A DNA stretch of 61,606 bases, counting the filler, from Globobulimina sp. (lineage: Eukaryota): NCBI GenBank assembly GCA_003354225.1. It is 16 parts of 16 records of this genome, joined end to end, with 100 filler letters (N's around TTAATTAATTAA, not from the genome) between each part and the next. Parts side by side here need not be neighbours in the genome. Positions count along the whole stretch, not along the records: positions 15,441 to 19,199 come from PIVH01002147.1; 15 more parts are not named here. One strand, written 5' to 3'. The translations under genes were made by a program, and so were the position numbers. The stretch's first letter is position 1, and each line of letters begins with the position of its first letter. Under the pieces are notes generated by a model, which was not told the DNA's origin, did no database searches, and saw only the letters and a program-made list of their open reading frames with translations. Positions 11,582 through 26,916 of the stretch are shown here, piece after piece.

Positions 11582-14500
11582 GAACTCAAAAATCGACATC
11601 CTAAGAAATAATGTATCAACCCTAAAGCCTTCAATCATCTGTTGCGTCGAAACGAAATATAAATCAGCTTTACAAATCGACAAAATAGAAAATTATGATG
11701 GCTTTCATAAATTTCAGACCGGAAAAGAATCCGGAGGAATAACAATCTGGGGGCTAAATTCAATCAATCCCACTAAATTAGATATTGACGGTGCCAACGA
11801 TACTATCAGTAACCTATATCAATGGATATTGATACAAAATAACGGACCTACAGCTATATGTGCAGTATATTGGAAAAATCAAACATTTCCTAAAGCTAAA
11901 GAAATCAACACAGATTTATACAAACGCCTTTTAAATCACATAGAATGGTGTACCACTAATAACTACGAAGTCATCATAATCGGGGACTTTAATGGTCATA
12001 TCGGTAATGACGAATATGGTATAGAAGGTAATCTAAATACAATCAATTCTAACGGCTTATTAGTAAGAGAATTTATAAAATCATGCAATTTGCATCTTGC
12101 CAATAACAATCCAATAACTGAAGGAAAATGGACATGGGGAATGAGACGAAACAATCCTAAAATTCTTGATCTTTTATTTCATTCTAAACTAAGCAAAACA
12201 ACTAAAATGCAGATAGACGAAGACAATTGGACATTGGGGACTGGAAACGGCGATCATTGTTTTATCTATTGCGAAATGAATATATTCCAACACAATATGA
12301 ACAAAAATCTAAATCTTAATGATAAAGTTATACCAAAATGGAATATAAATGATGATAGTGACTGGACTGGCTATAAAGAAAAACTAAAATCCCTATCTAC
12401 TAATCAAAATATCGATAATCTAACTATACACAATATCATCGAAAATATGACAATAGCTGGTGAATCAACTATTGGACATAAAAAGAAACCTGGACAAAAG
12501 AAAAGACTTTCGAATAAAGCAAAAAAAATTAAACAGAATATCACCGAAATTAGGAAGAAACTACGACATAAAGACGGTGACCAAAAAGAAAATCTTACTA
12601 AACTTTTCGAATTGACAATGGAACAAAGAATCCTTCGACGAAAGACCGAAATGGCAAGAATCGAAAAAGCCCATAACAAATGGCTAAATAATCCAAAACG
12701 AAAGTTTTCACAACTATATAGTAGTATGAAAACCTTAAAACGTGGCATACCCGAACCAGTAACATTAATAGACGAAAATAAAAAACCAATAAATGGAAAA
12801 GAAAAAATAAATACTCATCTATCAAACTTTTGGAATGATATTTTCTCCCTAGGCTTATGGCCTGAGGCTAATAACGAAATGAAACGATTAGGATTGGATA
12901 ACATCATCAAAGGTGCTGATAGAATGGAACTTGAAAATGAGATAACTATCAAAGAACTCAATAATTCAATCAAACGACTTAAAAATTGTACATCTGCGGG
13001 TACCACTAACATTCCGCCAGAATTTATCAAAAACTGGCCGGAAGAAACAAAAAATCAAACTCTAACATTATTTAATAAATGGTACAGTACTGGATTTTTT
13101 CCCGATATTGGTAAAACACAAAATGTAACGCTATTACATAAAAAAGGTTCTAAAAGCGATATCAAAAATTATAGAACACTATGCCTTGGTTGCAATCTTT
13201 GTAAAGTCTATCTTACTATATTAACTAAACGTATTGAGGAAATCACCGAAAAACGAAATTTATTAGGATATATTCAACATGGATTTCGAGCAAACAAACG
13301 AATTGAAGATTGTATATTAGTTATCGATCATACTATAAATAAAGCTAAAATAGGACGATCTCAATCTAACCAAGCTATAATAGCATTACTCGACATTTGC
13401 AAAGCCTATGATAGAGTCTGGAGAGAAGGCCTATGGAAGAAACTACGGGACTATGGATTCCCAGAACAACTAGTACGGGCCATTGAAAGTAGCTATCACA
13501 ATCCTGGTGCCATCATATCATTTCAAAATCAAAATACTGAACGACTATCAATGAACGTAGGACTTCGCCAAGGATGTACTATGTCACCCATATTATGGGC
13601 ATTATTCATAGCTGATTTAGGAAAAGAAATTGAAAAATCGAACTTAGGTATAACAATCGGACCAAATCACGAAAACAAAAATTTATCGGGTATCTTTTTT
13701 GCTGACGATATGCTACTATTTGCAGCCTCAGAATCCAAAATGGAAAAATTATTATCCATTGTCGGTAATTATGCTCAAAGATGGAAAATAGAATTTTCAG
13801 GACCAAAAAGTATGATAATTCCATTAAAACGCGATATAGACGAAACCAAAAATTGGAAAATCGGAAAAATGTACATATCCGAAAATGAAGAAAAAATTAT
13901 CAACATTCATGAACAAACCGAAGCTAAATATTTAGGAATCACAATCAACAAACACAGAGGCAGTATGTTTCAAAAACATAGAAATGATCTTAGAATAAGA
14001 ACTGAACGAGAAACTACAAGATGCTATAGACCAGCGATCGCAACTGCAAGATCTGTACTATATGGAACGAAAATATGGGAAGTATATGTGGTACCTAAAA
14101 TCCTACATGGAATATCTGCAATAACCTATTCTAATAATACCTTTACAGGAATCGAAATCCAACAACGAGAATTTATCCGAACAATATCGAAACTACCAAG
14201 ACATACACATAGAGCTGTTATATACGGCGAAACTAAACTTCTTCCTATGCAAATGGAAGCTGACAAACGAACTATGAACTATCTTCAACATCTAAAAAAA
14301 CTAAACAATGACAACATAGCAAAAATTGTTCTATTAGAACAATGGGAAACCTATATTATGGATCCAAACGTAACTACGTGGTTAAAACATACAATAAATA
14401 TTTATAATAAATATAACCTCGATCATAACGAAATACTAACCAAATCTACAATACGAAATAAAGTACGTGAAAAATGGCTATTAGAATATCAAACCATGCT

Positions 14501-15340
14501 TGAAGAATCATCAACTTTACGATTATACAAAAATAAAATAATTCCAAAGATAAACAATAAACTAAATATGAATGAAGGTGGAGAATACTGGTTAAAAGCA
14601 AAAGCCGGATCACTTTTACTAAACGATCGAACAAACAATGTATGTACTCGATGCAATCTAAATATTATCGAAAACTTAGAACATATGTTATGGACATGTC
14701 CAACGAATATGCTAAATAACGAAATTACATTTAAACTAAAATCCTTATGGGGATCACTTCCATCTACGATTAACAATGAACATAAACCATCCGAAATACC
14801 AACTTCTATAACCAATTTTATTTCAACAGCCACAAAATGGGTATTAGATGACAAAATACATGGCACAATACAAAATATGGTTGGATTTATCATTAAGAAA
14901 ATATACAGCTTACGACCTGAAATCATAGTATATAATACTATGATTCAAAGAGATACTACGAAATTGCCAAAAACAAAAATGAAAAAGAAAATACAAAAAC
15001 GAAATCATCAAAATCTACAAAATAACGATATACAAAAACAACTATCTCCTAAAAATAGAGAAGGTATAACCTGAAATCGAAAAAAAAATAAAATAAATAT
15101 ATAGTGCCAAATAACTGTATCTGTGATTAATGATAATAATAATTTCATTGTATGTAATTTTATTGTCAAAGCTATACTTATATTATAAGTGCTTATCAAA
15201 ATAAACTTTATCTTCCAAAAACTATCTTCCAAGTAACTAACTAAGTTTAAGAGCAAAACTTAGTTACTTACTAATTACTTACTAGGTTTTGTGCCGATCG
15301 CCATAACTAACTAATTACTAACTAAGTTTCGAAAATTTTC
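11582..15340 (+). mobile_element. Non-LTR retrotransposon (LINE), 5'-truncated by contig edge
   Basis: APE-RT-CCHC ORF followed by an AT-rich 3' region with TAAC/TTAC simple repeats. Confidence 0.9.
11583..15074 (+). CDS. LINE ORF2: APE endonuclease + reverse transcriptase + C-terminal CCHC knuckle
   Basis: Frame is open from the contig edge (SIICCVETK). APE motifs GDFNGH, ILDLLF, GDH; RT motifs KNYRTL, QHGFR, LDICKAYD, GLRQGCTMSP, FADD, KYLGI; knuckle CTRC...EHMLWTC. Confidence 0.93.
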   Translation, partial: NSKIDILRNNVSTLKPSIICCVETKYKSALQIDKIENYDGFHKFQTGKESGGITIWGLNSINPTKLDIDGANDTISNLYQWILIQNNGPTAICAVYWKNQTFPKAKEINTDLYKRLLNHIEWCTTNNYEVIIIGDFNGHIGNDEYGIEGNLNTINSNGLLVREFIKSCNLHLANNNPITEGKWTWGMRRNNPKILDLLFHSKLSKTTKMQIDEDNWTLGTGNGDHCFIYCEMNIFQHNMNKNLNLNDKVIPKWNINDDSDWTGYKEKLKSLSTNQNIDNLTIHNIIENMTIAGESTIGHKKKPGQKKRLSNKAKKIKQNITEIRKKLRHKDGDQKENLTKLFELTMEQRILRRKTEMARIEKAHNKWLNNPKRKFSQLYSSMKTLKRGIPEPVTLIDENKKPINGKEKINTHLSNFWNDIFSLGLWPEANNEMKRLGLDNIIKGADRMELENEITIKELNNSIKRLKNCTSAGTTNIPPEFIKNWPEETKNQTLTLFNKWYSTGFFPDIGKTQNVTLLHKKGSKSDIKNYRTLCLGCNLCKVYLTILTKRIEEITEKRNLLGYIQHGFRANKRIEDCILVIDHTINKAKIGRSQSNQAIIALLDICKAYDRVWREGLWKKLRDYGFPEQLVRAIESSYHNPGAIISFQNQNTERLSMNVGLRQGCTMSPILWALFIADLGKEIEKSNLGITIGPNHENKNLSGIFFADDMLLFAASESKMEKLLSIVGNYAQRWKIEFSGPKSMIIPLKRDIDETKNWKIGKMYISENEEKIINIHEQTEAKYLGITINKHRGSMFQKHRNDLRIRTERETTRCYRPAIATARSVLYGTKIWEVYVVPKILHGISAITYSNNTFTGIEIQQREFIRTISKLPRHTHRAVIYGETKLLPMQMEADKRTMNYLQHLKKLNNDNIAKIVLLEQWETYIMDPNVTTWLKHTINIYNKYNLDHNEILTKSTIRNKVREKWLLEYQTMLEESSTLRLYKNKIIPKINNKLNMNEGGEYWLKAKAGSLLLNDRTNNVCTRCNLNIIENLEHMLWTCPTNMLNNEITFKLKSLWGSLPSTINNEHKPSEIPTSITNFISTATKWVLDDKIHGTIQNMVGFIIKKIYSLRPEIIVYNTMIQRDTTKLPKTKMKKKIQKRNHQNLQNNDIQKQLSPKNREGIT

Positions 15341-15442
15341 NNNNNNNNNNNNNNNNNNNNNNNNNNNNNNNNNNNNNNNNNNNNTTAATTAATTAANNNN
15401 NNNNNNNNNNNNNNNNNNNNNNNNNNNNNNNNNNNNNNNNGA

Positions 15443-16207
15443 CAGGTAGTCTGCTATGATATTTATTACTTGGCGATGGCTGACCTGGGAGACATGAGCA
15501 GTTTGAAAACATTTAACAATGGATATAGATATATACTTCTGCTGGTTGATGTGCTTTCGAAAATGATTTGGACACGTCCACTAAAAAGAAAAACTGGCGA
15601 AGAAACAACGGAAGCCATGGCAAGCATATTCGACTCTCTACCCCAGGACAAAATGTTTCTAAAGCTGCAAACAGACGCTGGATCCGAATTTTACAACAAG
15701 CCTATGAAACAGCTTATGCGAAAGAACGGTATAACAATGTTCCATACTGAAAACTACGATGTCAAAGCCTCGGTCGCAGAAGTGAACATAAGAATTCTGA
15801 AGCATAGACTGTGGCGTTATATGGATGGTAAAAATACGAAGAGATGGGTGGATGTTCTTAATTCAATCACCGAGAGCAGAAATTCTACAGTATTTCCAGG
15901 TCACAAATTTAGACCGATCGATGTAAATGAGATGAATGCCAGTCAAGTCTTTCGGAGACTATATCCCAAACTGTCCCGAGGACTCAGACGATTTCCCCTA
16001 AAACATAAATATGATGTTGGCCAAAAAGTGAAACTCAGTGTTCTAAGAAATCCCTTGGTCCACGCATTCTATGGTACTTATACCGAAGAAACCTATGTCA
16101 TACGTTCGAAACTTAATACCGATCCAGTCACTTACCGCATATCTAACGACGAAGGCGATGCGATGAGAGGAACTGTTTACGAGGACGAAGTGCTTCCCAT
16201 TTATTGA
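15443..16207 (+). CDS. Polinton-type retroviral-like (rve) DDE integrase, 5'-truncated
   Basis: ADLGDM...NNGYRYILLLVDVLSK, LQTDAGSEF, KASVAE; C-terminal KYDVGQKVKLS...TEETYVI...GTVYEDEV. Confidence 0.9.
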   Translation, partial: QVVCYDIYYLAMADLGDMSSLKTFNNGYRYILLLVDVLSKMIWTRPLKRKTGEETTEAMASIFDSLPQDKMFLKLQTDAGSEFYNKPMKQLMRKNGITMFHTENYDVKASVAEVNIRILKHRLWRYMDGKNTKRWVDVLNSITESRNSTVFPGHKFRPIDVNEMNASQVFRRLYPKLSRGLRRFPLKHKYDVGQKVKLSVLRNPLVHAFYGTYTEETYVIRSKLNTDPVTYRISNDEGDAMRGTVYEDEVLPIY

Positions 16208-16210
16208 TGC

Positions 16211-16484
16211 ATGTCATCATTTTGTCATCATTTTTAAACTATTAATATCGTGAGTCAGTTTTCATCCATCATCATTAAGTTATGGATATCGAAACGGGCG
16301 GAGACATGGCTCCCAAAAGTGATAAGCCTAAAAAGATGATCGTCAAAAAGTCCAAGGCCAAGAAATCGACCGAGATTTGCGCCATTTGCCGTAATCGAAT
16401 AGCCGACCTTGTTAAGAAGCCAAAGAACAAGAAGCGAAACATCCCCAAAAAATGATGACGATGATGATGCAAAAATGATGACAT
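16211..16484. repeat. Paired inverted repeats (2x TGTCATCATTTT left, 2x AAAAATGATGAC right) bracketing a small ORF
   Basis: Left copies within 16211-16235; right copies at 16448-16459 and 16471-16484. Confidence 0.75.
16282..16455 (+). CDS. 57-aa lysine-rich basic protein with CxxC (absent from ORF track)
   Basis: MDIETGGDMAPKSDKPKKMIVKKSKAKKSTEICAICRNRIADLVKKPKNKKRNIPKK*; fills the gap between integrase and ATPase. Confidence 0.55.
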   Translation: MDIETGGDMAPKSDKPKKMIVKKSKAKKSTEICAICRNRIADLVKKPKNKKRNIPKK

Positions 16485-16489
16485 TTGTA

Positions 16490-16497
16490 TATAAATA
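16490..16497 (+). promoter_or_regulatory. TATA box candidate for the ATPase gene
   Basis: TATAAATA starting 36 nt upstream of ATG 16526; the same octamer at 17307-17314 starts 33 nt upstream of ATG 17340. Confidence 0.45.
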
Positions 16498-16525
16498 TGA
16501 TTACTGTATCGCTACATAAATAAAA

Positions 16526-17311
16526 ATGTTTGACTGTAGATTTGTACACCCTTTTTCCTTATGTTTGTTTGGAAGCACCGGCTGCGGCAAGTCTTCGGTA
16601 AGAAATATAATCAGTAAATCACAATCATCCATACATTTATTTTTTCTAGTTCATCCAAAGTATTTTATCTAAATCTCTCACATACGGCACAGTAGAATGG
16701 GATACGATAATGTTGTGTTACGGAGCCGATCAGCCCATGTACAATGATTGGTTTAAGTATGGTAAAACATTTATCTATCATCGTGGGTGGCCGGACGAAT
16801 CGATCGTAGAACGCTACTTGAAGAACGATGGCAACAACCTACTCATATTCGATGACTTAGAAGAATCTGTGATCAAAAACGTTAAAGCCTCCAATCAACT
16901 GATGAAATTGTTTACAGTATACAGGTGAGTGGGACAAGACACAAAAAAAAAACGATTCTTAAATGTATATGTTTCAGGCACCACTGGGGAGTGAGCGTGA
17001 TATGGGTAACACACCATCTGTTTTCAAAACATGACTCCAATACTTGCATACAAAGAAACACCCAGTATCTCGTGTTGATGTCAAGCCCGAGAGACAAGAC
17101 AGCCATCTCAAAACTTGGTTCCCAAATGGATGTCGGTTATGGCCCCTTCCTTTTGTCAGCCTACAAAGATGCTGTCAAGAAAGCCGGAGACTTTCTGTTG
17201 ATCGATCTGAGACCCGACACACCGGAAAAATATAGGATCAGGGAAACCGTCACAAATGAGGGATGCATTGTGCGGTATGAGATGAAGAAAAAGGATGAAG
17301 CGAAACTATAA
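16526..17311 (+). CDS. Polinton A32/FtsK-like DNA packaging ATPase, 3 exons, 226 aa
   Basis: Exons 16526-16597, 16650-16924, 16978-17311. Walker A GSTGCGKS, Walker B LLIFDD, FTVYRHH-WGVSVIWVTH, NTQYLVLMSSPRD, FLLIDLRP. Introns GTAAGA...TTCTAG (52 nt) and GTGAGT...TTTCAG (53 nt). Confidence 0.88.
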
Positions 17312-17339
17312 ATAGCCCATTAACTAGTCAATTTCAATT

Positions 17340-17651
17340 ATGTCTAGTGTAGCCGGTCATAACGTGTACGACAACTGGAACGCCTTGTTATTATTGTGTG
17401 AGCCAGGTCTAAGCAAACGCCTATATTCAACATTGTTGGATGAGAAAAAGTTGTTGGTTCAAGCATTGGCCGAACTCATAGTCAACGCCGAAGTACTCGA
17501 TCAAAAGATCAAGAAGGGTGATTTGAAAATTTTCGAAAAAGGATCAACTAAGAAGAAACGTGAACTGTTGCTCAAACATCACTATAGACTCAAAGTTGTG
17601 CCCAAAGTCTGCCAAGCCGGTGTGAAATATCTCAAAGATGGAAGCGGTTAG
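17340..17651 (+). CDS. Small Maverick-associated hypothetical protein
   Basis: 103 aa; LVQALAELIVN...KKKRELL resembles, from memory, the small ORF that follows Maverick ATPases. Confidence 0.6.
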   Translation: MSSVAGHNVYDNWNALLLLCEPGLSKRLYSTLLDEKKLLVQALAELIVNAEVLDQKIKKGDLKIFEKGSTKKKRELLLKHHYRLKVVPKVCQAGVKYLKDGSG

Positions 17652-17955
17652 AGTTGTGGAATATCCCGACAAACTCATGAAAGAAGATTTCATGGGCTAT
17701 TTAAAAAGTGAAAAGGCCAAAAAGCTTCTGGATCGGTTGTGGCCCTTTATAAAGATGGATCCTGATGGACGAATTCTCTACAAAGGTGACGACGACGGAG
17801 AATACAACCCTGGAAGTCCCTTGATCGATTTGATAGAATACACGACAGTGGATGATAGAGCCTCGGTTGATCGACCAATCGATATCAAAATGTTTTGGAA
17901 CATTTTGATGTCCAACAATATAGTTGAAAGTGATAAAAAGTGGATTAAACTGTAA
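17638..17955 (+). CDS. Small Maverick-associated hypothetical protein (GS-x-x-x-DL type)
   Basis: KAKKLLDRL...DGRILYKG...PGSPLIDLI...RPID...F.NIL.SNN...WIKL resembles a conserved Maverick ORF; 14-nt overlap with the previous ORF. Confidence 0.65.
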   Translation: MEAVRVVEYPDKLMKEDFMGYLKSEKAKKLLDRLWPFIKMDPDGRILYKGDDDGEYNPGSPLIDLIEYTTVDDRASVDRPIDIKMFWNILMSNNIVESDKKWIKL

Positions 17956-17986
17956 TCGTTTATTGAGTATAATAAAATATTTACAA

Positions 17987-19178
17987 TCACATATCTTCTG
18001 CGACAGTTGTCAATTTACGCTTTCGTTTGTTATACAGTTCTTTCCGTTTGTCGGAGAGAATGGTTCCATTTGCGTACAAGGCATCCACAACTGAATTAAT
18101 GTGCTCCGGACAAGTCAAAGCCTTGATAACATTTTGTTGAACGTCTCCAATGGTCAACAAAGCCATATCTAGACAAAAAATGAAATCGTAAGTCAAGTCG
18201 TGAAAAAACGTTTACCGGTATCCTCGGCCAACAAATCGATGAGCACAGCTTTTCTGTTTATATGTCTGTACATGTCCTTGGTAGCGACCACCCATTCGGT
18301 CTCACGCTTTTTTCCCCACTCTGAAAAAGGTATAACTAAGAAAAGAATTCGAACGAAACTGCGTACTTGCGGGATCTTGATCGACTTGAGTCAAAGTCGA
18401 GCTAACCAAATATTTTTCGCTCCACCGCTTCAAATATCTGCGGACTTCCTCAACTTTTTTCGCCTGATCCGATCTGGCGAAGCGTTTGTGCTCCTCTAAC
18501 CAAACCAATCTGTCAAACAGCCCCTTGGCCAACTTTTTCAGAGATACCAAGTTGTCGCCCAAGACAATGGTTTCGTATCGGCGTAGAGATCCTCCACCGG
18601 ACTCTGTAAGAATGAGCATATATATATATACAAACGACGTTTTTGTGGGTTGACTCACCATACATGCTTACGGTAGACAACTTGAATGTTCTTCCCTGTT
18701 TGCGCAGAATTCTTCCTCGTCTCAACGGATCGATATTCAACAAGTAATTTTCTTGTTTCGGTTTACCGTCGTCCGATACAATCAAGTTGTTCAGTTCTTC
18801 CATTTCGACCAAGTTGAGTGTTACGGAAGTATCCAACTTCTCCATGCCTCCGGCAGGTGGATCTTGGCCATTGTGAAATTGTCTGTTCCAGTACATATCC
18901 ACCATTTCGTCGATGCCGAGGCTGCCATCGGAATAAGATCCGAAGGTAACCTGAAAATCATAAATATAATAAATCAACAAAAAAAGAAAGAGTTAATTTA
19001 CCTTGGCTTCGTTCAAATGCATCAGAGTTCGAGCGTAGACACCTTTGCCGAGCGAAAAGAGAATTCCTTCCGGCCACGCAGAAACGGGCTTGTCCAGCCA
19101 AGAATCGTCGACCGGATTCACCGTCGGTTTGACACTTTCCCAAACGTCGATATTTATAATATTTGCTCGTGCCGCCAT
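17987..19178 (-). CDS. Five-exon 330-aa Polinton accessory protein, possibly PC4-like ssDNA-binding, with C-terminal NLS
   Basis: Exons 19002-19178, 18659-18950, 18367-18603, 18216-18320, 17987-18168 (993 nt in total). Four GT-AG introns of 51, 55, 46 and 47 nt; all phases are consistent. Confidence 0.75.
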
Positions 19179-19299
19179 TATTTCTAAATAAGAAACCTCN
19201 NNNNNNNNNNNNNNNNNNNNNNNNNNNNNNNNNNNNNNNNNNNTTAATTAATTAANNNNNNNNNNNNNNNNNNNNNNNNNNNNNNNNNNNNNNNNNNNN

Positions 19300-21586
19300 A
19301 TACGAAGACGACATGAAACAGGCGGTCCAGGACGCAAAGCAACGCACGAAACGGATTAAAAAAGTGAGTGATGAGATAAGTAAAATAGGGCAGCAATTAG
19401 CGGATGGTTTTAATGAGGAAGATATTGAAAACGCGAAGCGAGAGAAACACGGCATAACTAACGGACAATTAAAACAAGTGCGTCGTGAAAGAAATGCAAT
19501 CGATCACAAGTTGGGGGATGTAAATAATAAGAAACAAAACATCGACAGCAATCTGCAACAAATTGAGCAGCAATTGGAGAGTATGGAGAATGTCTCAAAA
19601 CGGAGAGATGCGCACATATTTAATTCGCATCGTGCCAACGAGAAGAGATTCAAACAATGGGTCGATTCGCACAAACATGAGTTTAAGGGCGAGGTATTTG
19701 GGCCGATTGTGAAAGAAATGACGGTTAAAAATGATTTGCACGCCAAATATTTGAATAATTTGATCTCTCAAACCACATATTATGGCTATGTCTGCCAAGA
19801 CTCCCAAGATTGGCAGCGATTATTACGCAAATCACAAGAGATGAAGCTACAATGTACCATATTTACGTCGGCCGCGGATAATAATAATCAGAATGCCGAG
19901 TATCGACCGCGGAGAGCCATGGCTGTGGACACTTTGCGTGGATTTGGAGTGGACGGATATTTAGATTCTGTGTTTGATGCACCTGCCATTATCAAAAAAG
20001 TATTGAATGACAGTCATGGTTTACATCAACGTGGCTATGCTATGGATGACATTGATAATAATTGCTTGGACTCTGTGCTGATGACACAAAAGGGAGAAAG
20101 TGGCAAATTACAGTCGTTAATTACACCAACGGCGTTTTATAATGTTCGCCAGAGTCGATATAGTAATAATATTTTGCGCGCCTGCGATAATTTGAAAGAT
20201 TGGGGAAATAGATCCATTTTAAAGAAAACGCAAGATTTCTCGCAGCAAATCCATGCAAAACAGCAACAAAGAGATGGATTATTGCAGCAATTTGACAATA
20301 TTCAACAGGAAAAAAAACAGTTAGAATATAATAAAAAAGAGTCCATCCGTAAAATCACGCAGTTGGCGGATAAAAAAAAGGCGTTGGAGGATAAAATCGG
20401 AGCCTTTGTCGCATTGAAAAAGAAATTGAAGAGAAAAGAGAGAGATTTGCGAGATTTAGAAAATAAGGAGGAAAATCCAGAGGAAATGCAGAAAAAATCT
20501 ACGGTATTAATTGAGAAAGAAAATATTGTGCGGGTTAAAATATTCAAACAGTTGGCCAATGATATTGAATCATTGACAAATTCAATGAAACAAAGCATTG
20601 TATATCGTATAAGCAAGAAATATTACAATGCGGAATCGAAATTTATTGAGACGAAAATCATAAAAATCAATAAACGAAATAAAGAGTTACGCAAAGAATT
20701 AGATGCCAGCAAAAGAGACGAAAAACAGTTACACGATCAATATGAAAATAGCATTCATTCCGCGTCTCGTAAATATCCACGAAATCGATTTGTGGCATTA
20801 TGGAGTGACGAGGATAAGGCATTGAATGTGGAGGGAATTGAGGGGAAAATAAATCATTTACAGGGAAGGATCAACATATTATTGATTGATGAAGAAAGAG
20901 TGAATCGATACAATCGATTATTAAAAACCATTGAGTCACTAAATAAGAAGTTGCAGAAATTAGAGGCTGACCAATCCAACGAAGAAACGGCGATAAAGGA
21001 CATTGAAAATCGGTGGAAACCAAAATTATTAGAGGCTGTGGAGAAAATATCTGTGAAATTTGGTGAGTTTTTCGCGCAGTTTAATAAGGCGGAGGGCAAA
21101 GTTGTTTTGGTGGAGGCTGAATTTTATAGTGATTGGTGCATTGATATATTGACCAAATTCCGAGCTGATCAGCCATGGAAACGGTTGACCTCTTCCTCGC
21201 AATCTGGCGGTGAAAAGTCTGTGTCGACCATGTTGTATTTGTTATCATTGCAGCAAGTCACGACTGTGCCATTTCGTGTGGTGGACGAAATAAATCAAGG
21301 CATGGACCCAATAAATGAGAGGCGGATTATGCAAATATTAAACTATGAATGCACGCCGAAACGAAAAGGGGTCAGCCATTTGCCACAATATTTTGTGGTG
21401 ACACCCAAATTATTACCAAAATTGGATTATTCTCCATGTTCGTCTGTTTATTTTATATTTAATGGACCATTCCAAATGGGTCAGTTTTATTGGACTCCGG
21501 ATGTATTCGTACAAACACAAAAAGCATTGATGCAAAATGAAGATGATGAGGAAACGGAAGAGGAAGAGGAAGAAGAAAGTGATTGA
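19300..21586 (+). CDS. SMC5: Structural maintenance of chromosomes protein 5, C-terminal portion
   Basis: Hinge region (GEVFGPI), coiled coils, signature QSGGEKSVSTMLYLLSLQ, Walker B/D-loop FRVVDEINQGMDPINER, QYFVVTPKLL. Confidence 0.93.
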
Positions 21587-21734: not shown

Positions 21735-23058
21735 TCATCCGAAACAATAGGAAAAGAATGGAAATACATACTGAATTCCAAGAAAATATTCAGTAATGAT
21801 CTCAAAATAAGCAGTTAAAAATATTAATCCAATATCACTATCAACAACGTTTAGTATTTCTTTCCTGATCATATTTCTGCCATATTTCTCAAACTTTTGT
21901 CGATTGTTTATTATAGAATTATTAAACCACTTCATAAATTTATCATTATTCAGCCACAATGGAGGATGATTACCATTAATCTCAATTAAACCACAAAAAA
22001 TTTTCATTTCTTCCATTTTTTGGTGATGTAAATCTATATTTTTCAATGCATGCAACTCATGAAAAATTGGTGCATATTGACTCTCGACAAACCTATCCAT
22101 TGCATATTGAACATATCCTCCATTTGAACAATTATTTAACAGATTAAATCCTTTACAAAACTCAATCAATAAACATCTTATATAAACTTGTAAATTTATG
22201 CTCATTAATTTTAATTTTGTGATCTTATCATTTAAATCAAACCGTATCATATCAAAAGGTAATGGATATTTTGTTAATTTATTTTGAATTTGTGATTCAC
22301 GTCCTTTGCTCCATATGTTTATATTTATAATTTCTTGGCTAATTCCAATAACTTCATGATCCCATATTGGTGGAAAACCGTGGAATATAAATAATCTCTC
22401 CTTCATTTAGCACACTTTCATGGATTATAAACTTTTCCTTCATAGTATCTGACGGTAATTTTAGCGGTAATTTAAATTTCAACATTCCGTTTTTGATAAT
22501 TTGTGATTTTCTGGATTGTGGATGAAGCCATGGGAAATGATACAAATGTGAATGATATTTAGGTTCAACGAAACGAAACAACTTCTTTCCATCCATAAAT
22601 TTGAATATTAAAATTGTTTGATGCATCAAAATGAAACCTTGTTATTGTTCCTCTCGATCCCATCCATATTTTAATTGTTTGTAACTCTTCCTTTGACGCA
22701 ATGAATTGTGATAAATATTTACCATACATTTTGATAGTCATATTGTTAATGATATTGTCGGTCGGTAATATTTGAGTGGAAAATGAACGAAATTCAAACT
22801 TATTTGGATTGCCATTGGATGAGTTACAGGAATATAATGGATATAAATTATTATTATCACTTTTCTTTTCATTTTGCTTAATGAATTCCGTTTGTTTTGC
22901 AATATATTGCCAATATTGCTGCAATGATGACGTTAACTTTGTATTATTATTTGGTTTTTCCCATTTTATAATATCAATTAACGGCAATTCCTGCTCATAG
23001 TATTCAAAAACAGGACAATATCTGTTTGATTTATATTCCATGTCATTACATTGCGATG
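21735..23058 (-). pseudogene. JmjC/cupin-8 oxygenase broken by two micro-insertions
   Basis: IWMG...FHFD...QIYG; removing 4 nt (22588-22591) and 10 nt (22370-22379) restores GKKLFRFVEP and LNEGEIIYIPPIWDHEV in a single frame. Confidence 0.75.
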
Positions 23059-23158: not shown

Positions 23159-23258
23159 TTAGGCATTTTTGCTTTATCGTAAAAATCTATTTTCTAAGGG
23201 AAAAAACTGATTTTTTCTGTTTAAAAACAGATTTTTACGATAAAGCAAAAATGCCTAA
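23159..23258. repeat. Perfect 30-bp inverted repeat at contig edge
   Basis: TTAGGCATTTTTGCTTTATCGTAAAAATCT (23159-23188) and AGATTTTTACGATAAAGCAAAAATGCCTAA (23229-23258), 40-nt spacer. Confidence 0.9.
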
Positions 23259-26200
23259 TGAAGTAATGAACTAAAAGCAAAAACCCTATTGAATCACATA
23301 CTTTTTGATCCAAATCGTTCAGTGCATTCTCTTTCAAATCGATCGATATTCTTGACATATTTTCTGTTTTTGTTTTCAAATTATTGCTTAATATGTTTTT
23401 TTGTTTGATGTAATTCTCTAAATCCAATGTTTGTTTTTGTAAACGAGGTGGAATATCGCCGTCTTGTTCACACACTCGATTTGTTAAAGCAATTAATGTT
23501 TTATTGATTTCTGTATTTAATTCTGATAATTTTGACTCTTCATTGTCCAATAAAGTCATATTTAAATCTATGTCATCGACATTATTAAAATTATCCCAAT
23601 CAATGTCAATTATCGTATCGTTCTCTGATATTTTTGATAAATTAATCCCTGTGAAAGATGATGATAATTTGCTTGTATTTTTATGAAAGAAAGAGGCAAA
23701 ATGTAGCTCTTTTTTCAATTTCGAAATCTCTTTATTTGTGTTTAATTTCTCTTTTTCTAAAATCCGTATTGTTTTATCTAATTCTTTGGCTCTTAATTCC
23801 CTCTCCAAATCCATTAATTGTTGGTCGACTTTTTTAGTAAAGTCGCGAGTAAACGTTCCTGTGTTGTTTGCATCTTTGCTGCTATTCATACCATGAGTTA
23901 TTGCACAAAATTGCGTTTGATAAAATATCTCTTGTTTACATAGATTTGCTTCCAAAACGAATCTGTTTTCACCTTTAAATTGTTTTAAAATACATGTTTT
24001 TAATAAACGTAATGGATTTCCATTGTTTAATTTGTAACAATCCGTTCCATCCAATCCTAAAACGTGTAGTACTTCGCCGGTGTAATCTTTTTTAATTCTT
24101 CTTAAAATCAATGCTAACACACCAATGTTATTCTGGATTTTGCCACTTTGATCGTAATAATTGTTATCTAATAATAATTTGTATACACTCCAAATATCGT
24201 CCACGTGCTCTCTCGTTCTTGTCTTAAATTGTCTTTTTCCATTTTTTCCTCTCCCACATTTACCAAAGTATGGTTTCCCGCAATTTTGACAAAATATTAC
24301 ATAAATTGTATCCCGGCTAAAGCACGACGATCTATTTATTTTTATCGACTGTCCGGTTATCGAAGATTTCCATTTTTTTACATTGAACATTATATCCGGA
24401 TATTTTCTACAAATACAGTCTTTTTTGCCCGGTGTAATATTTAAATCATTCAATTTTCCACAACACATAAATCCTTTCCATTTATCCAAATTATCACAAT
24501 TAATTTTATTATTATCGATTACAATCAATTTGCCGACATTGCAAAAATTGATTAAATTCTCGTCCATTAAATCTGAGTTTTGTTTCAAATCCAATCTAAA
24601 TGTATTTGGTGATAATATTTGGTCCAATTTATTATAGCATTTATAGCTAATTTTGAATTTTTCCAAAGGAAAAATTGCCGCCAATTTACGATCCGATTTA
24701 ATCCAATGATTATAAGCACGTTTGAGTAATTCATAAATATTTGGCAAATTATTGTGGTATTTCACCACAAACCAAAATAATTTGTCTTTTACCAATGATT
24801 TGAACTGTTTTTCTTCGGTTTCGCTGTCTGACTCTTTGTTCTCTTCGTCATTGTCTAAATATTTCTTTTTTCTCCTCTGTCTAATATAGAATGGCTTTTT
24901 CCATATTTTGAGTGCTTGCTTTTTTGTGATACGTCTATATTTATTAAAAATATTATTAACTTGCCATACGTCCTGGTTCCTGGCTATAAGAAAGCTCTTA
25001 TAATTTCTGAATTGATTATCAATATATTGATCATCACAAATACTTCGTATCCTTAATGCCGTCGATGATATTATACCACGTTTTTGATGCGGTACATGAC
25101 ACGAATCGTTTTCTAAAGTACAATGTGTGTCGGTTTCCTTTGAATGGACATCCACCGTAATCTCCCAACCCATAAACTGTTCATTCCCAAACGTTTTTAG
25201 TTTACGTTGAACTCGAAACTTTGTATCTAAAATTTCTAAGTATTTGCCATTTAAATCTTTGTCCCTATCTACGTAATGATAATCTAATGTGAATTGTATA
25301 TCTTTATTTATATTATTCATACCAAACAGCAAACATTTCAAATCGAAGATGTCTCCGCAACCCGCACCAAAGTAATCGTCTCGAAATCTGCCTTGCATTA
25401 ATACCTCCAATGCGGATCTCGTACGTACCCAACTTCTCTGACTCAGCAATTTGTCGTATAACGTAATCACTAAATCCGCGTAGCGACACGCCCAGCTTCT
25501 CCCCATTCCGCAGCCTCTCTTTTTAATGAAATTTTCACCGTTGCATACTACCACACCTCTCCATAATGCCTCGTTCAATAAATCTAAGATGCATTCCTTT
25601 GACGGATGCAATGTCAGCACTTCATTATATTCATTTAGTTTCTGTCTCATTTGTTGCAGTCCAAATTCGTGCTGTATAGACGGATAAAGTTTGACTACGT
25701 CAAACGACCACACAATGAAATCTTTTCTATCTTTTATCGCCCGCTGAATTTTTTCATTTTCGTTAAAATCGATTATCCGCATCACCAAATCTTTGGTGTC
25801 TTTCAACAAAAAACGTTTTTCTAACTCCGCATTCCATAAAGGCGTAATAATGTGATCTAAAAATTTATCTGTCGGCTCCCAGAAAGTCCCACAAAATGAT
25901 GAAATAAGACGTAGTGCGGGTACTTTTTTGTGCGTTTTCCATAACGCATATAAGTTCGCGTCGCGATAATGGAATTTGGCCGGAAATTGGGGCTGCAGCG
26001 CTTTGAACCATTTCTCTTTCAATTCCCCTCTATCGACCCATTTTGATAATAATTCCGCAATAAAATCAATTTCCTGCTGCCAATCGTAATTATTTGCTCT
26101 TTCAAACCCTAATTTGTTTAAAACGCCCGCTGTTGTTATCATATACGACGACCCCTTATCTTCCTTAACCATAATCCGTCGATTCACGTCGTCAAATTTC

Positions 26201-26916
26201 TGGTTTTCTTCAATTGTATCCATATACGCTTCTTCTTCTTCGTCTGTTAAATTTAATTTGTAATTTAACGTTGATTGCTTATGTAAGCATTCATCGTATA
26301 ATGAAGTCTCAAAATGTTGCAGGAAAGCCTCTAATTTTGTATTTCCTGAGTTTTTACAGTGGTATTTGCGCTCTTTGTTGTTCACTAAATACGGCTTCCA
26401 ATCACTCCATTCATTCTCCCTTTGTTTCTTTTCTTCTTTTTGTTCATAATTTGCATTGTTATAAATCTTATTGTACCACGATCTGACACTGTTTCTTAGA
26501 TTAAAAATACCCGTAAACAGATTATTGAAATCAAAATACCGGGGATTTACCACATAATTTCGACTTCGAGCGACTAATTTTTCAAAACCCGGCAAAATCG
26601 TAATATTTTCGTCTGTTTTTGGTAGTTTTTGGGCCGGGGCAATTTTCAACGCCTCAGCTTTTAGAATTATTTTGCATTTTTTTCGGAGATTTGCGCAATT
26701 TCTTTTGGTGTTTAATTTGTTTTTATACGTATTAAATTTGCTTCTTTTTACCTCCAATTTTGTCTTATTTTTCTTCCAAACTCTCCGCTTTTTATGTGTT
26801 TGGAATATTTGCTGTAAACGGAATACTTTGTTACTACTTACGATCTCTGCATTGGTCTCTAAAATGTGTCTTGTATTGATTCCATTTCCTGAAAAGTGCG
26901 ATTTTTCTTCTTCCGT
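23221..26916 (-). mobile_element. Penelope-like retroelement (Neptune-like): RT + C-terminal GIY-YIG endonuclease, 5'-truncated
   Basis: EDKG, LWKTHK...LRLISS, SFDVVKLYPSI, GCGMGRSWACRYADL, RFRDD, thumb HSKETDTH...SCH; Cys-rich linker; TIYVIFCQNCGKPYFGK...TRTREH. Frame open to the contig edge. Confidence 0.88.

Follow-up and report, generated by a model that had tools for sequence, protein, structure and literature searches.

Intact Mavericks (Polintons) of vertebrates are reported to have intronless open reading frames (ORFs), in line with Kapitonov and Jurka (2006) (PMC8097293). For nematode Mavericks, core genes, including the ATPase, are described as intronless and introns as confined to cargo genes (10.1101/2022.07.12.499685), and two surveys of protist elements describe such viral genes as being without introns (PMC10120064, PMC9356565). 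Apart from these, Maverick-polinton-like proviruses of dinoflagellates often contain introner transposons, which occur as repeated copies and are for the most part regarded as insertions that postdate integration (PMC11957031). The integrase genes of Ginger1, a DNA transposon, carry one to four GT-AG introns (PMC2836005). Here, we describe a contig of the Globobulimina sp. assembly GCA_003354225.1 (PIVH01002147.1) on which a Polinton-type packaging ATPase and a second gene appear to be interrupted by six short spliceosomal introns. It occupies positions 15441-19199 of the stretch of DNA analysed (61,606 nucleotides (nt), hereafter the window, in whose numbering all positions are given). Spliceosomal introns inside Polinton core genes were not found described in the literature searched, the founding papers of 2006 and 2007 and all supplements lying outside its reach. 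Some early Repbase entries for invertebrate Polintons may have multi-exon gene models, which could lower the novelty.

The contig holds, on the + strand, an integrase, an ORF of 57 amino acids (aa), a three-exon ATPase and two further small frames (ORF_A and ORF_B), towards which a five-exon gene of 330 codons converges on the - strand. With Polintons/Mavericks, as represented by 80 related metagenomic loci (L001-L080), it shares a D,D35E rve integrase and an A32/FtsK-type ATPase, both at 34-42% identity, as well as compact, partly overlapping genes; it differs from them in the short introns of two of its six genes, its gene order, the lack of a chromodomain and the presence of the orphan 330-aa gene. 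The dinoflagellate proviruses resemble it as integrated Polinton-like elements containing intron-type sequences, but their introners are not stated to interrupt core genes (PMC11957031), whereas the contig introns are mutually unrelated, measure 46-55 nt, split the ATPase frame and include two positions common to relatives of ca. 55% identity. Intron-bearing genes also travel inside nematode Mavericks, and the orphan 330-aa gene could be cargo of this kind; the core genes are described as intronless there (10.1101/2022.07.12.499685), whereas a core gene is split in the contig. Ginger1, in turn, has a related Gypsy/Polinton-like integrase and illustrates that DNA-copied elements can carry introns, but it is described as having a transposase only, with no packaging ATPase (PMC2836005), and the visible part of the contig integrase is intronless.

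The ATPase is laid out on the + strand as exon 1 (16526-16597, 24 codons), exon 2 (16650-16924) and exon 3 with its TAA stop (16978-17311), separated by predicted intron 1 (16598-16649; 52 nt, phase 0, GTAAGA...TTCTAG, GC content 0.23) and intron 2 (16925-16977; 53 nt, phase 2, GTGAGT...TTTCAG, GC 0.32). Unspliced, the frame meets its first stop at codon 49; spliced, it comprises 226 codons with no internal stop and intact motifs, the Walker A motif (GSTGCGKS) being assigned to exon 1, its loop running across junction 1, and Walker B (LLIFDD) lying in exon 2. Exon 3 alone finds three uninterrupted homologues (P0001-3; 224-226 aa, 33-34% identity, Pfam PF04665 Pox_A32). When such a homologue is aligned to the contig by tblastn, position 16650 corresponds to the start of residue 34, 16916 to the end of residue 119 and 16979 to the start of residue 123, the last in another frame. 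The spliced protein is colinear with the intronless P0001-3 in a global alignment (31% identity over 214 columns), from exon 1 onwards and gapless at both junctions (columns 34 and 126). Furthermore, a profile hidden Markov model (HMM) of ATPases from Polinton loci matches each of the three exon fragments, and does so in three different frames (2.9e-4, 2.2e-4 and 1.6e-23 for exons 1 to 3). The two predicted introns of the ATPase are proven by this colinearity with intronless A32-type homologues.

To place the element, JGI metagenome contigs were scanned with the integrase, and the best 80 of 551 confirmed relatives were taken as loci L001-L080, whose integrases are 34-39% identical to that of the contig; their 634 ORFs yielded 22 clusters of at least four members. 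Two long loci, L057 and L072, carry pPolB (PF03175, 1e-43) and an rve-plus-chromodomain integrase by Pfam, and L057 also matches Pox_A32 and Peptidase_C5, while the ATPase and protease counterparts of L072, without a Pfam match, were recognised by exon-3 tblastn and ORF clustering. The conserved order across the loci is pPolB, ATPase, two to three small ORFs, integrase, a 255-aa protein, a 134-aa protein, a 435-aa capsid protein and protease. A structural model of the 435-aa protein (e.g. L057:11559-12863) adopts a double jelly-roll (DJR) capsid fold (predicted local distance difference test (pLDDT) 76, predicted template modelling score 0.81), and Foldseek relates it to the capsids of iridovirus/PBCV-1 (4e-15), Sputnik (5e-14) and mavirus (9e-13). 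Exon 3 of the contig ATPase has tblastn matches in 41 of the 80 loci (30-42% identity), and in all 20 loci with matches to both exon 1 and exon 3 the ATPase is a single uninterrupted ORF; therefore, both introns are specific to the lineage of the contig. The spliced ATPase aligns with the ATPase family of these loci by hhalign at probability 99.9 (E 4.7e-37), and the integrase with the integrase cluster of the pPolB-, DJR capsid- and adenain-bearing loci at probability 100 (E 3.6e-52), in keeping with the Polinton-type integrase and A32-type ATPase named by a first-pass annotation of the contig. Since the relatives of both genes sit in pPolB- and capsid-bearing elements, both contig genes belong with bona fide Polintons, and their Polinton affinity is thus supported by sequence comparison, the family assignment of each gene being established.

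The integrase (15443-16207, + strand; Pfam rve 3.8e-8) is represented by its C-terminal 254 codons and a TGA stop, ca. 70 N-terminal codons being missing at the contig end, and the visible part has no intron. Its D14, D78 and E113 are invariant in the alignment and show the D-35-E spacing of the D,D35E triad. Relatives of 321-327 aa, from metagenome sources only, are 81, 79, 79 and 67% identical, and integrase clusters at 62-83% identity number at least 11.

Several observations weigh against simple membership among the Polintons. Two of their features are present on the 3.76-kb fragment, namely the D,D35E rve integrase and the A32-like/FtsK-HerA-type packaging ATPase; no pPolB, capsid gene, protease or terminal repeat occurs on the contig, which ends after 3.76 kb. 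Profile HMMs were built from the related loci for pPolB, capsid, protease, five accessory-gene clusters, integrase and ATPase, and only those of the integrase and the ATPase match in the window, both on the contig at 15441-19199; the pPolB, capsid, 255-aa protein, protease and accessory profiles found no match in the window, the contig itself being cut at both ends. Gene order runs from integrase to ATPase on the contig versus pPolB, ATPase, small ORFs and integrase in the related loci, where four of the six contig genes have no counterpart. The C-terminal chromodomain is also absent from the contig integrase; such an extension is present in five of six more distant aligned relatives (P0015, P0017, P0019 and P0020 by Pfam; P0012 with a short tail only), and P0014 likewise ends early.

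These observations bear on another type of integrase-plus-ATPase element, such as a polinton-like virus or a virophage-like provirus whose replication module differs, or an altogether new type. The fragment displays just two of six or more defining Polinton features, its order is unlike that of the related Polintons, the four genes without a counterpart there include the 330-aa gene, and the nearest intronless ATPases (P0001-3) lie on contigs of less than 2 kb, where the context beyond the ATPase is not visible. Against it, both recognisable genes find their relatives in pPolB- and capsid-bearing elements, and no relative was found in IMG/VR viral contigs by integrase or exon-2 family (the second exon of the 330-codon gene); the same searches found no close relative in GTDB genome contigs. 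We consider this explanation improbable.

The second intron-bearing gene (17987-19178, - strand) comprises exons at 19178-19002, 18950-18659, 18603-18367, 18320-18216 and 18168-17990, with its stop at 17989-17987. The intervening predicted introns, at 19001-18951 (51 nt), 18658-18604 (55 nt), 18366-18321 (46 nt) and 18215-18169 (47 nt), have phases 0, 1, 1 and 1. Spliced, the gene shows no internal stop; unspliced, the first stop comes at codon 62. A full HMMER search with exon 2 returned only four relatives, P0028-31, at 52-62% identity, all of them metagenome ORF fragments. P0029 has a counterpart of exon 1, a 20-residue insert (first residue V, last Q) exactly at junction 1 and a counterpart of exon 2, as expected of the read-through of an in-frame 60-nt GT...CAG intron. 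Furthermore, P0029, P0030 and P0031 all end one residue past the glycine split by intron 2, which would fit a GTAAGT-type donor followed by a stop, while P0028 continues into a phenylalanine- and proline-rich tail. In a related contig of run X1 both flanks match, but 74 unrelated letters stand in place of 18605-18681. Introns 1 and 2 of this gene are therefore supported by its relatives, in the predicted positions.

Beyond this small family the gene stands apart. No family was found for its exons in Pfam or PHROGs, a word-indexed search with exon 3 among longer proteins gave no informative match, a profile search of the Protein Data Bank (PDB) reached E 0.9 at best and the ESM Atlas gave no usable match. 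An AlphaFold2 model of the relative P0029 from a six-row alignment was unusable (pLDDT 39.6). Two tandem-repeat proteins (P0032 and P0033; 1000 and 536 aa) that had matched exon 2 at 4.7e-9 and 2.6e-5 were rejected as spurious, the similarity being confined to short repeated stretches. In the related loci, tblastn found no match to the gene, and hhalign against their 22 ORF clusters reached a probability of 0.7 at best, both of which count against the Polinton explanation. By these searches, the gene is an apparent orphan whose detectable relatives are confined to its own small family. The first-pass annotation had spoken of two virus-like genes in an intronised Polinton lineage and had proposed profile comparison of the spliced proteins; that description holds for the ATPase, which matches its Polinton family, and the introns and the affinity of integrase and ATPase agree with such a lineage, whereas the virus-like nature of the 330-aa gene was overstated.

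As a set, the six introns have precisely the lengths first proposed (52, 53, 51, 55, 46 and 47 nt), all begin with GT and end with AG, and removal of each restores the open frame. Their boundaries are established, and the two stop-free frames of 226 and 330 codons stand as predicted. Their acceptors are TTTCAG in three, CTAG in two and TTACAG in one, and their GC content is 0.289 versus 0.448 in the exons. An introner origin was considered and rejected, as no common repeat family is apparent beyond short A/T runs. Four of the six predicted introns have comparative support. In a chance control, the longest ATG-to-stop frame was sought by dynamic programming, with GT-AG introns of 45-56 nt allowed, in the real sequences and in 60 dinucleotide shuffles: the second gene reaches 331 codons versus 129 +/- 36 (maximum 245), and the ATPase 226 codons versus 84 +/- 23 (maximum 153). 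Nevertheless, the statistic is a weak filter, as the same control yields a frame of 277 codons on the strand opposite the second gene, and it is homology that carries the case.

Other points tell against the splicing itself. For the third and fourth introns of the 330-aa gene the evidence consists of the reading frame and composition, and their donors (GTACGC and GTAAAC) are weak; the donor sequence in the P0028-31 relatives was deduced from protein ends and not from DNA. Among the sequences of four runs aligned to the contig there are contigs only and no splice joints, and none of the runs listed as matching the contig is on record as RNA; the coverage of the one that is possibly RNA is limited to 248 nt within the integrase and 50 nt around 17266-17315. 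That the six introns are actually spliced we infer from sequence.

The contig is one of a multi-copy family. Run X1, possibly the source sample itself, provides 63 contig pieces that align to it: six at 99% identity or above, two at 95-99%, 15 at 90-95% and 40 below 90%. For one related contig, 40 of 303 differences were listed, and it is on these that the codon-position count rests; 33 lie in coding frames, where position 3 holds 22 of the 33 (binomial p = 9e-5), and the seven further listed differences are crowded into a 21-nt stretch of the fourth intron of the 330-aa gene. The pattern indicates several diverged copies, the reading frames of which appear to be kept by purifying selection, and the existence of such copies can be regarded as established; an active element and a conserved gene family would both be compatible with it.

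A further alternative is the unspliced reading, in which the genes are pseudogenes broken by short AT-rich GT...AG insertions or products of faulty assembly. It could draw on the prediction of splicing from sequence, the two weak donors and the opposite-strand control at 277 codons. Yet once any of the six intervals is removed the frame is restored, and no other defect remains; intronless homologues are exactly colinear at two junctions, a further two junctions recur in relatives of 52-62% identity, and the third-position bias amounts to selection on the annotated frames. An assembly artefact is further opposed by the recurrence of the same sequence in separate contig pieces of run X1, though that run may be the source sample. 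Taken together, the unspliced reading can hardly be sustained.

Domestication deserves more weight, and purifying selection fits it equally well. Under this explanation the contig would represent old endogenised remnants, fixed Polinton-like genes kept for a host function that have gained introns and no longer move. Coding sequence holds ca. 3-4 introns per kb, a density like that of host genes, the genes stand in a rearranged order when compared with intact Polintons, the chromodomain is absent, and the HMM search of the window found no polymerase or capsid gene. Set against this are the many diverged copies in one sample (63 pieces, 40 of them less than 90% alike), the at least 11 integrase clusters at 62-83% identity, the compact layout with overlapping genes and spacers of 28-74 nt, and an intact D,D35E integrase beside an intact packaging ATPase, a pair that serves the propagation of an element. 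On balance, domestication appears unlikely, though less so than a different type of element.

The window (1-61606) joins 16 contigs of ca. 3.76 kb each in descending order of length, with N44-TTAATTAATTAA-N44 spacers (runs of N) between them; therefore, features on different contigs are not physically linked. Positions 15441-19199 form one entire contig of 3759 bases, with a GC content of 0.409 versus ca. 0.30 in adjoining contigs, as the first-pass annotation had noticed; together with the shorter introns and their T-rich acceptors, it had taken this as a hint that the host may be a different organism, such as a small metazoan. Both of its ends lie inside or just beside genes: it terminates 21 bases upstream of the ATG of the 330-codon gene, and the 5' part of the integrase is lost at the other end. 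Intergenic spacers measure 28-74 nt with a GC content of 0.16-0.29. All three stop codons serve as stops in the contig genes, so the standard genetic code applies. By motif inspection, TATAAA lies 36 nt before the ATPase ATG (16490) and 33 nt before the ORF_A ATG (17307), and AATAAA follows ORF_B and, on the other strand, the 330-aa gene, both inside the 31-nt convergent spacer (17959-17976). This placement suggests separate compact transcription units.

The probable explanation, in our view, is that the contig derives from the interior of an integrating DNA element of the Polinton/Maverick kind that exists in multiple copies, resides in the nucleus of a short-intron eukaryote and needs host splicing. 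Such an element would encode an rve D,D35E integrase, an A32/FtsK-type packaging ATPase, three small proteins and one 330-aa protein, and its genes would be expressed as separate compact RNA polymerase II units. The host spliceosome would remove the two ATPase introns and the four introns of the 330-aa gene (46-55 nt) before translation. The element would be copied as DNA, with introns gained in the lineage being inherited by each new copy; the intron positions common to relatives of ca. 55% identity would be explained because DNA-copied introns pass to every copy. We further infer that the genes are transcribed in the nucleus, that the element is still mobile and that polymerase and capsid genes lie outside the sequenced fragment. 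A dependence on the host nucleus and its spliceosome is familiar from adenoviruses.

A bolder form of this explanation holds that the lineage is still propagating, with introns built into its packaging ATPase, which is a core gene of morphogenesis, and into an accessory gene, with intron positions retained through divergence to ca. 55% protein identity, dependent on the host nucleus and spliceosome and hidden from the ORF-based pipelines by which endogenous viruses are catalogued. We offer it tentatively, as a possibility somewhat short of even. The hiding is itself readily seen, as the first-pass annotation anticipated: a meaningful Pfam family is obtained for none of the three ATPase exon fragments and none of the five fragments of the second gene. 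For the ATPase, Pfam was run on the exon fragments, which alone miss PF04665. With the core gene in three pieces, each of which fails in Pfam, ORF-based surveys would miss or misjudge the lineage. If the explanation is true, short-intron eukaryotes may harbour a part of Polinton diversity that carries introns and has stayed hidden. Furthermore, introns conserved in a mobile element that is copied as DNA would be a sign of long residence within a single host group and would help to trace the place and mode of its expression. The weight of the finding is moderate, given a fragment whose splicing is predicted from its sequence.

Apart from the two intron-bearing genes and the integrase, the contig has three small ORFs (57, 103 and 105 aa), one more than the two compact ORFs of the first-pass annotation. 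The 57-aa frame (16282-16455, + strand) is lysine-rich and open, with no match in Pfam or PHROGs. It is flanked by an imperfect inverted repeat rich in ATGATGA motifs (16199-16496), with 33-nt arms at 16199-16231 and 16464-16496 that are 79% complementary (pair I1, with nested pair I4). One related contig skips from 16421 to 16517 and has many small insertions and deletions just upstream, at 16243-16279. The ORF and the inverted repeat together may constitute a small inserted cassette or a regulatory structure.

ORF_A (17340-17651, + strand; 103 aa) is an open frame in which codon position 3 holds eight of the 11 listed differences of a related contig; it has no family match in Pfam, in PHROGs or by hhalign against the ORF clusters of the related loci. 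ORF_B (17638-17955, + strand; 105 aa), also open, overlaps it by 14 nt. By hhalign it weakly resembles (probability 31-41, E 3e-4 to 5e-4) the C-terminal portion of a protein of 241-279 aa encoded between ATPase and integrase in some of the related loci, e.g. at L057:8015-8851. The two frames were considered as one spliced gene and this was rejected, there being no plausible GT-AG interval of suitable length between them.

The adjoining contigs of the window hold features of their own. At 19301-21586 (+ strand) lies an uninterrupted ORF of 761 aa, with no Pfam match at E <= 0.001 and, by eye, a coiled-coil look. Another uninterrupted ORF, of 1231 aa (23221-26916, - strand), likewise has no Pfam match at E <= 0.001 and looks retroelement-like by eye. 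An ORF fragment at 22565-23056 (- strand) carries a Cupin_8 (JmjC-like) domain (9.3e-8). On an AT-rich contig, an ORF of 1163 aa at 11583-15074 (+ strand) matches RVT_1 (2.2e-32) and Exo_endo_phos_2, of the AP-endonuclease type (7.1e-6), and represents a retrotransposon of the non-LTR (long terminal repeat) class.

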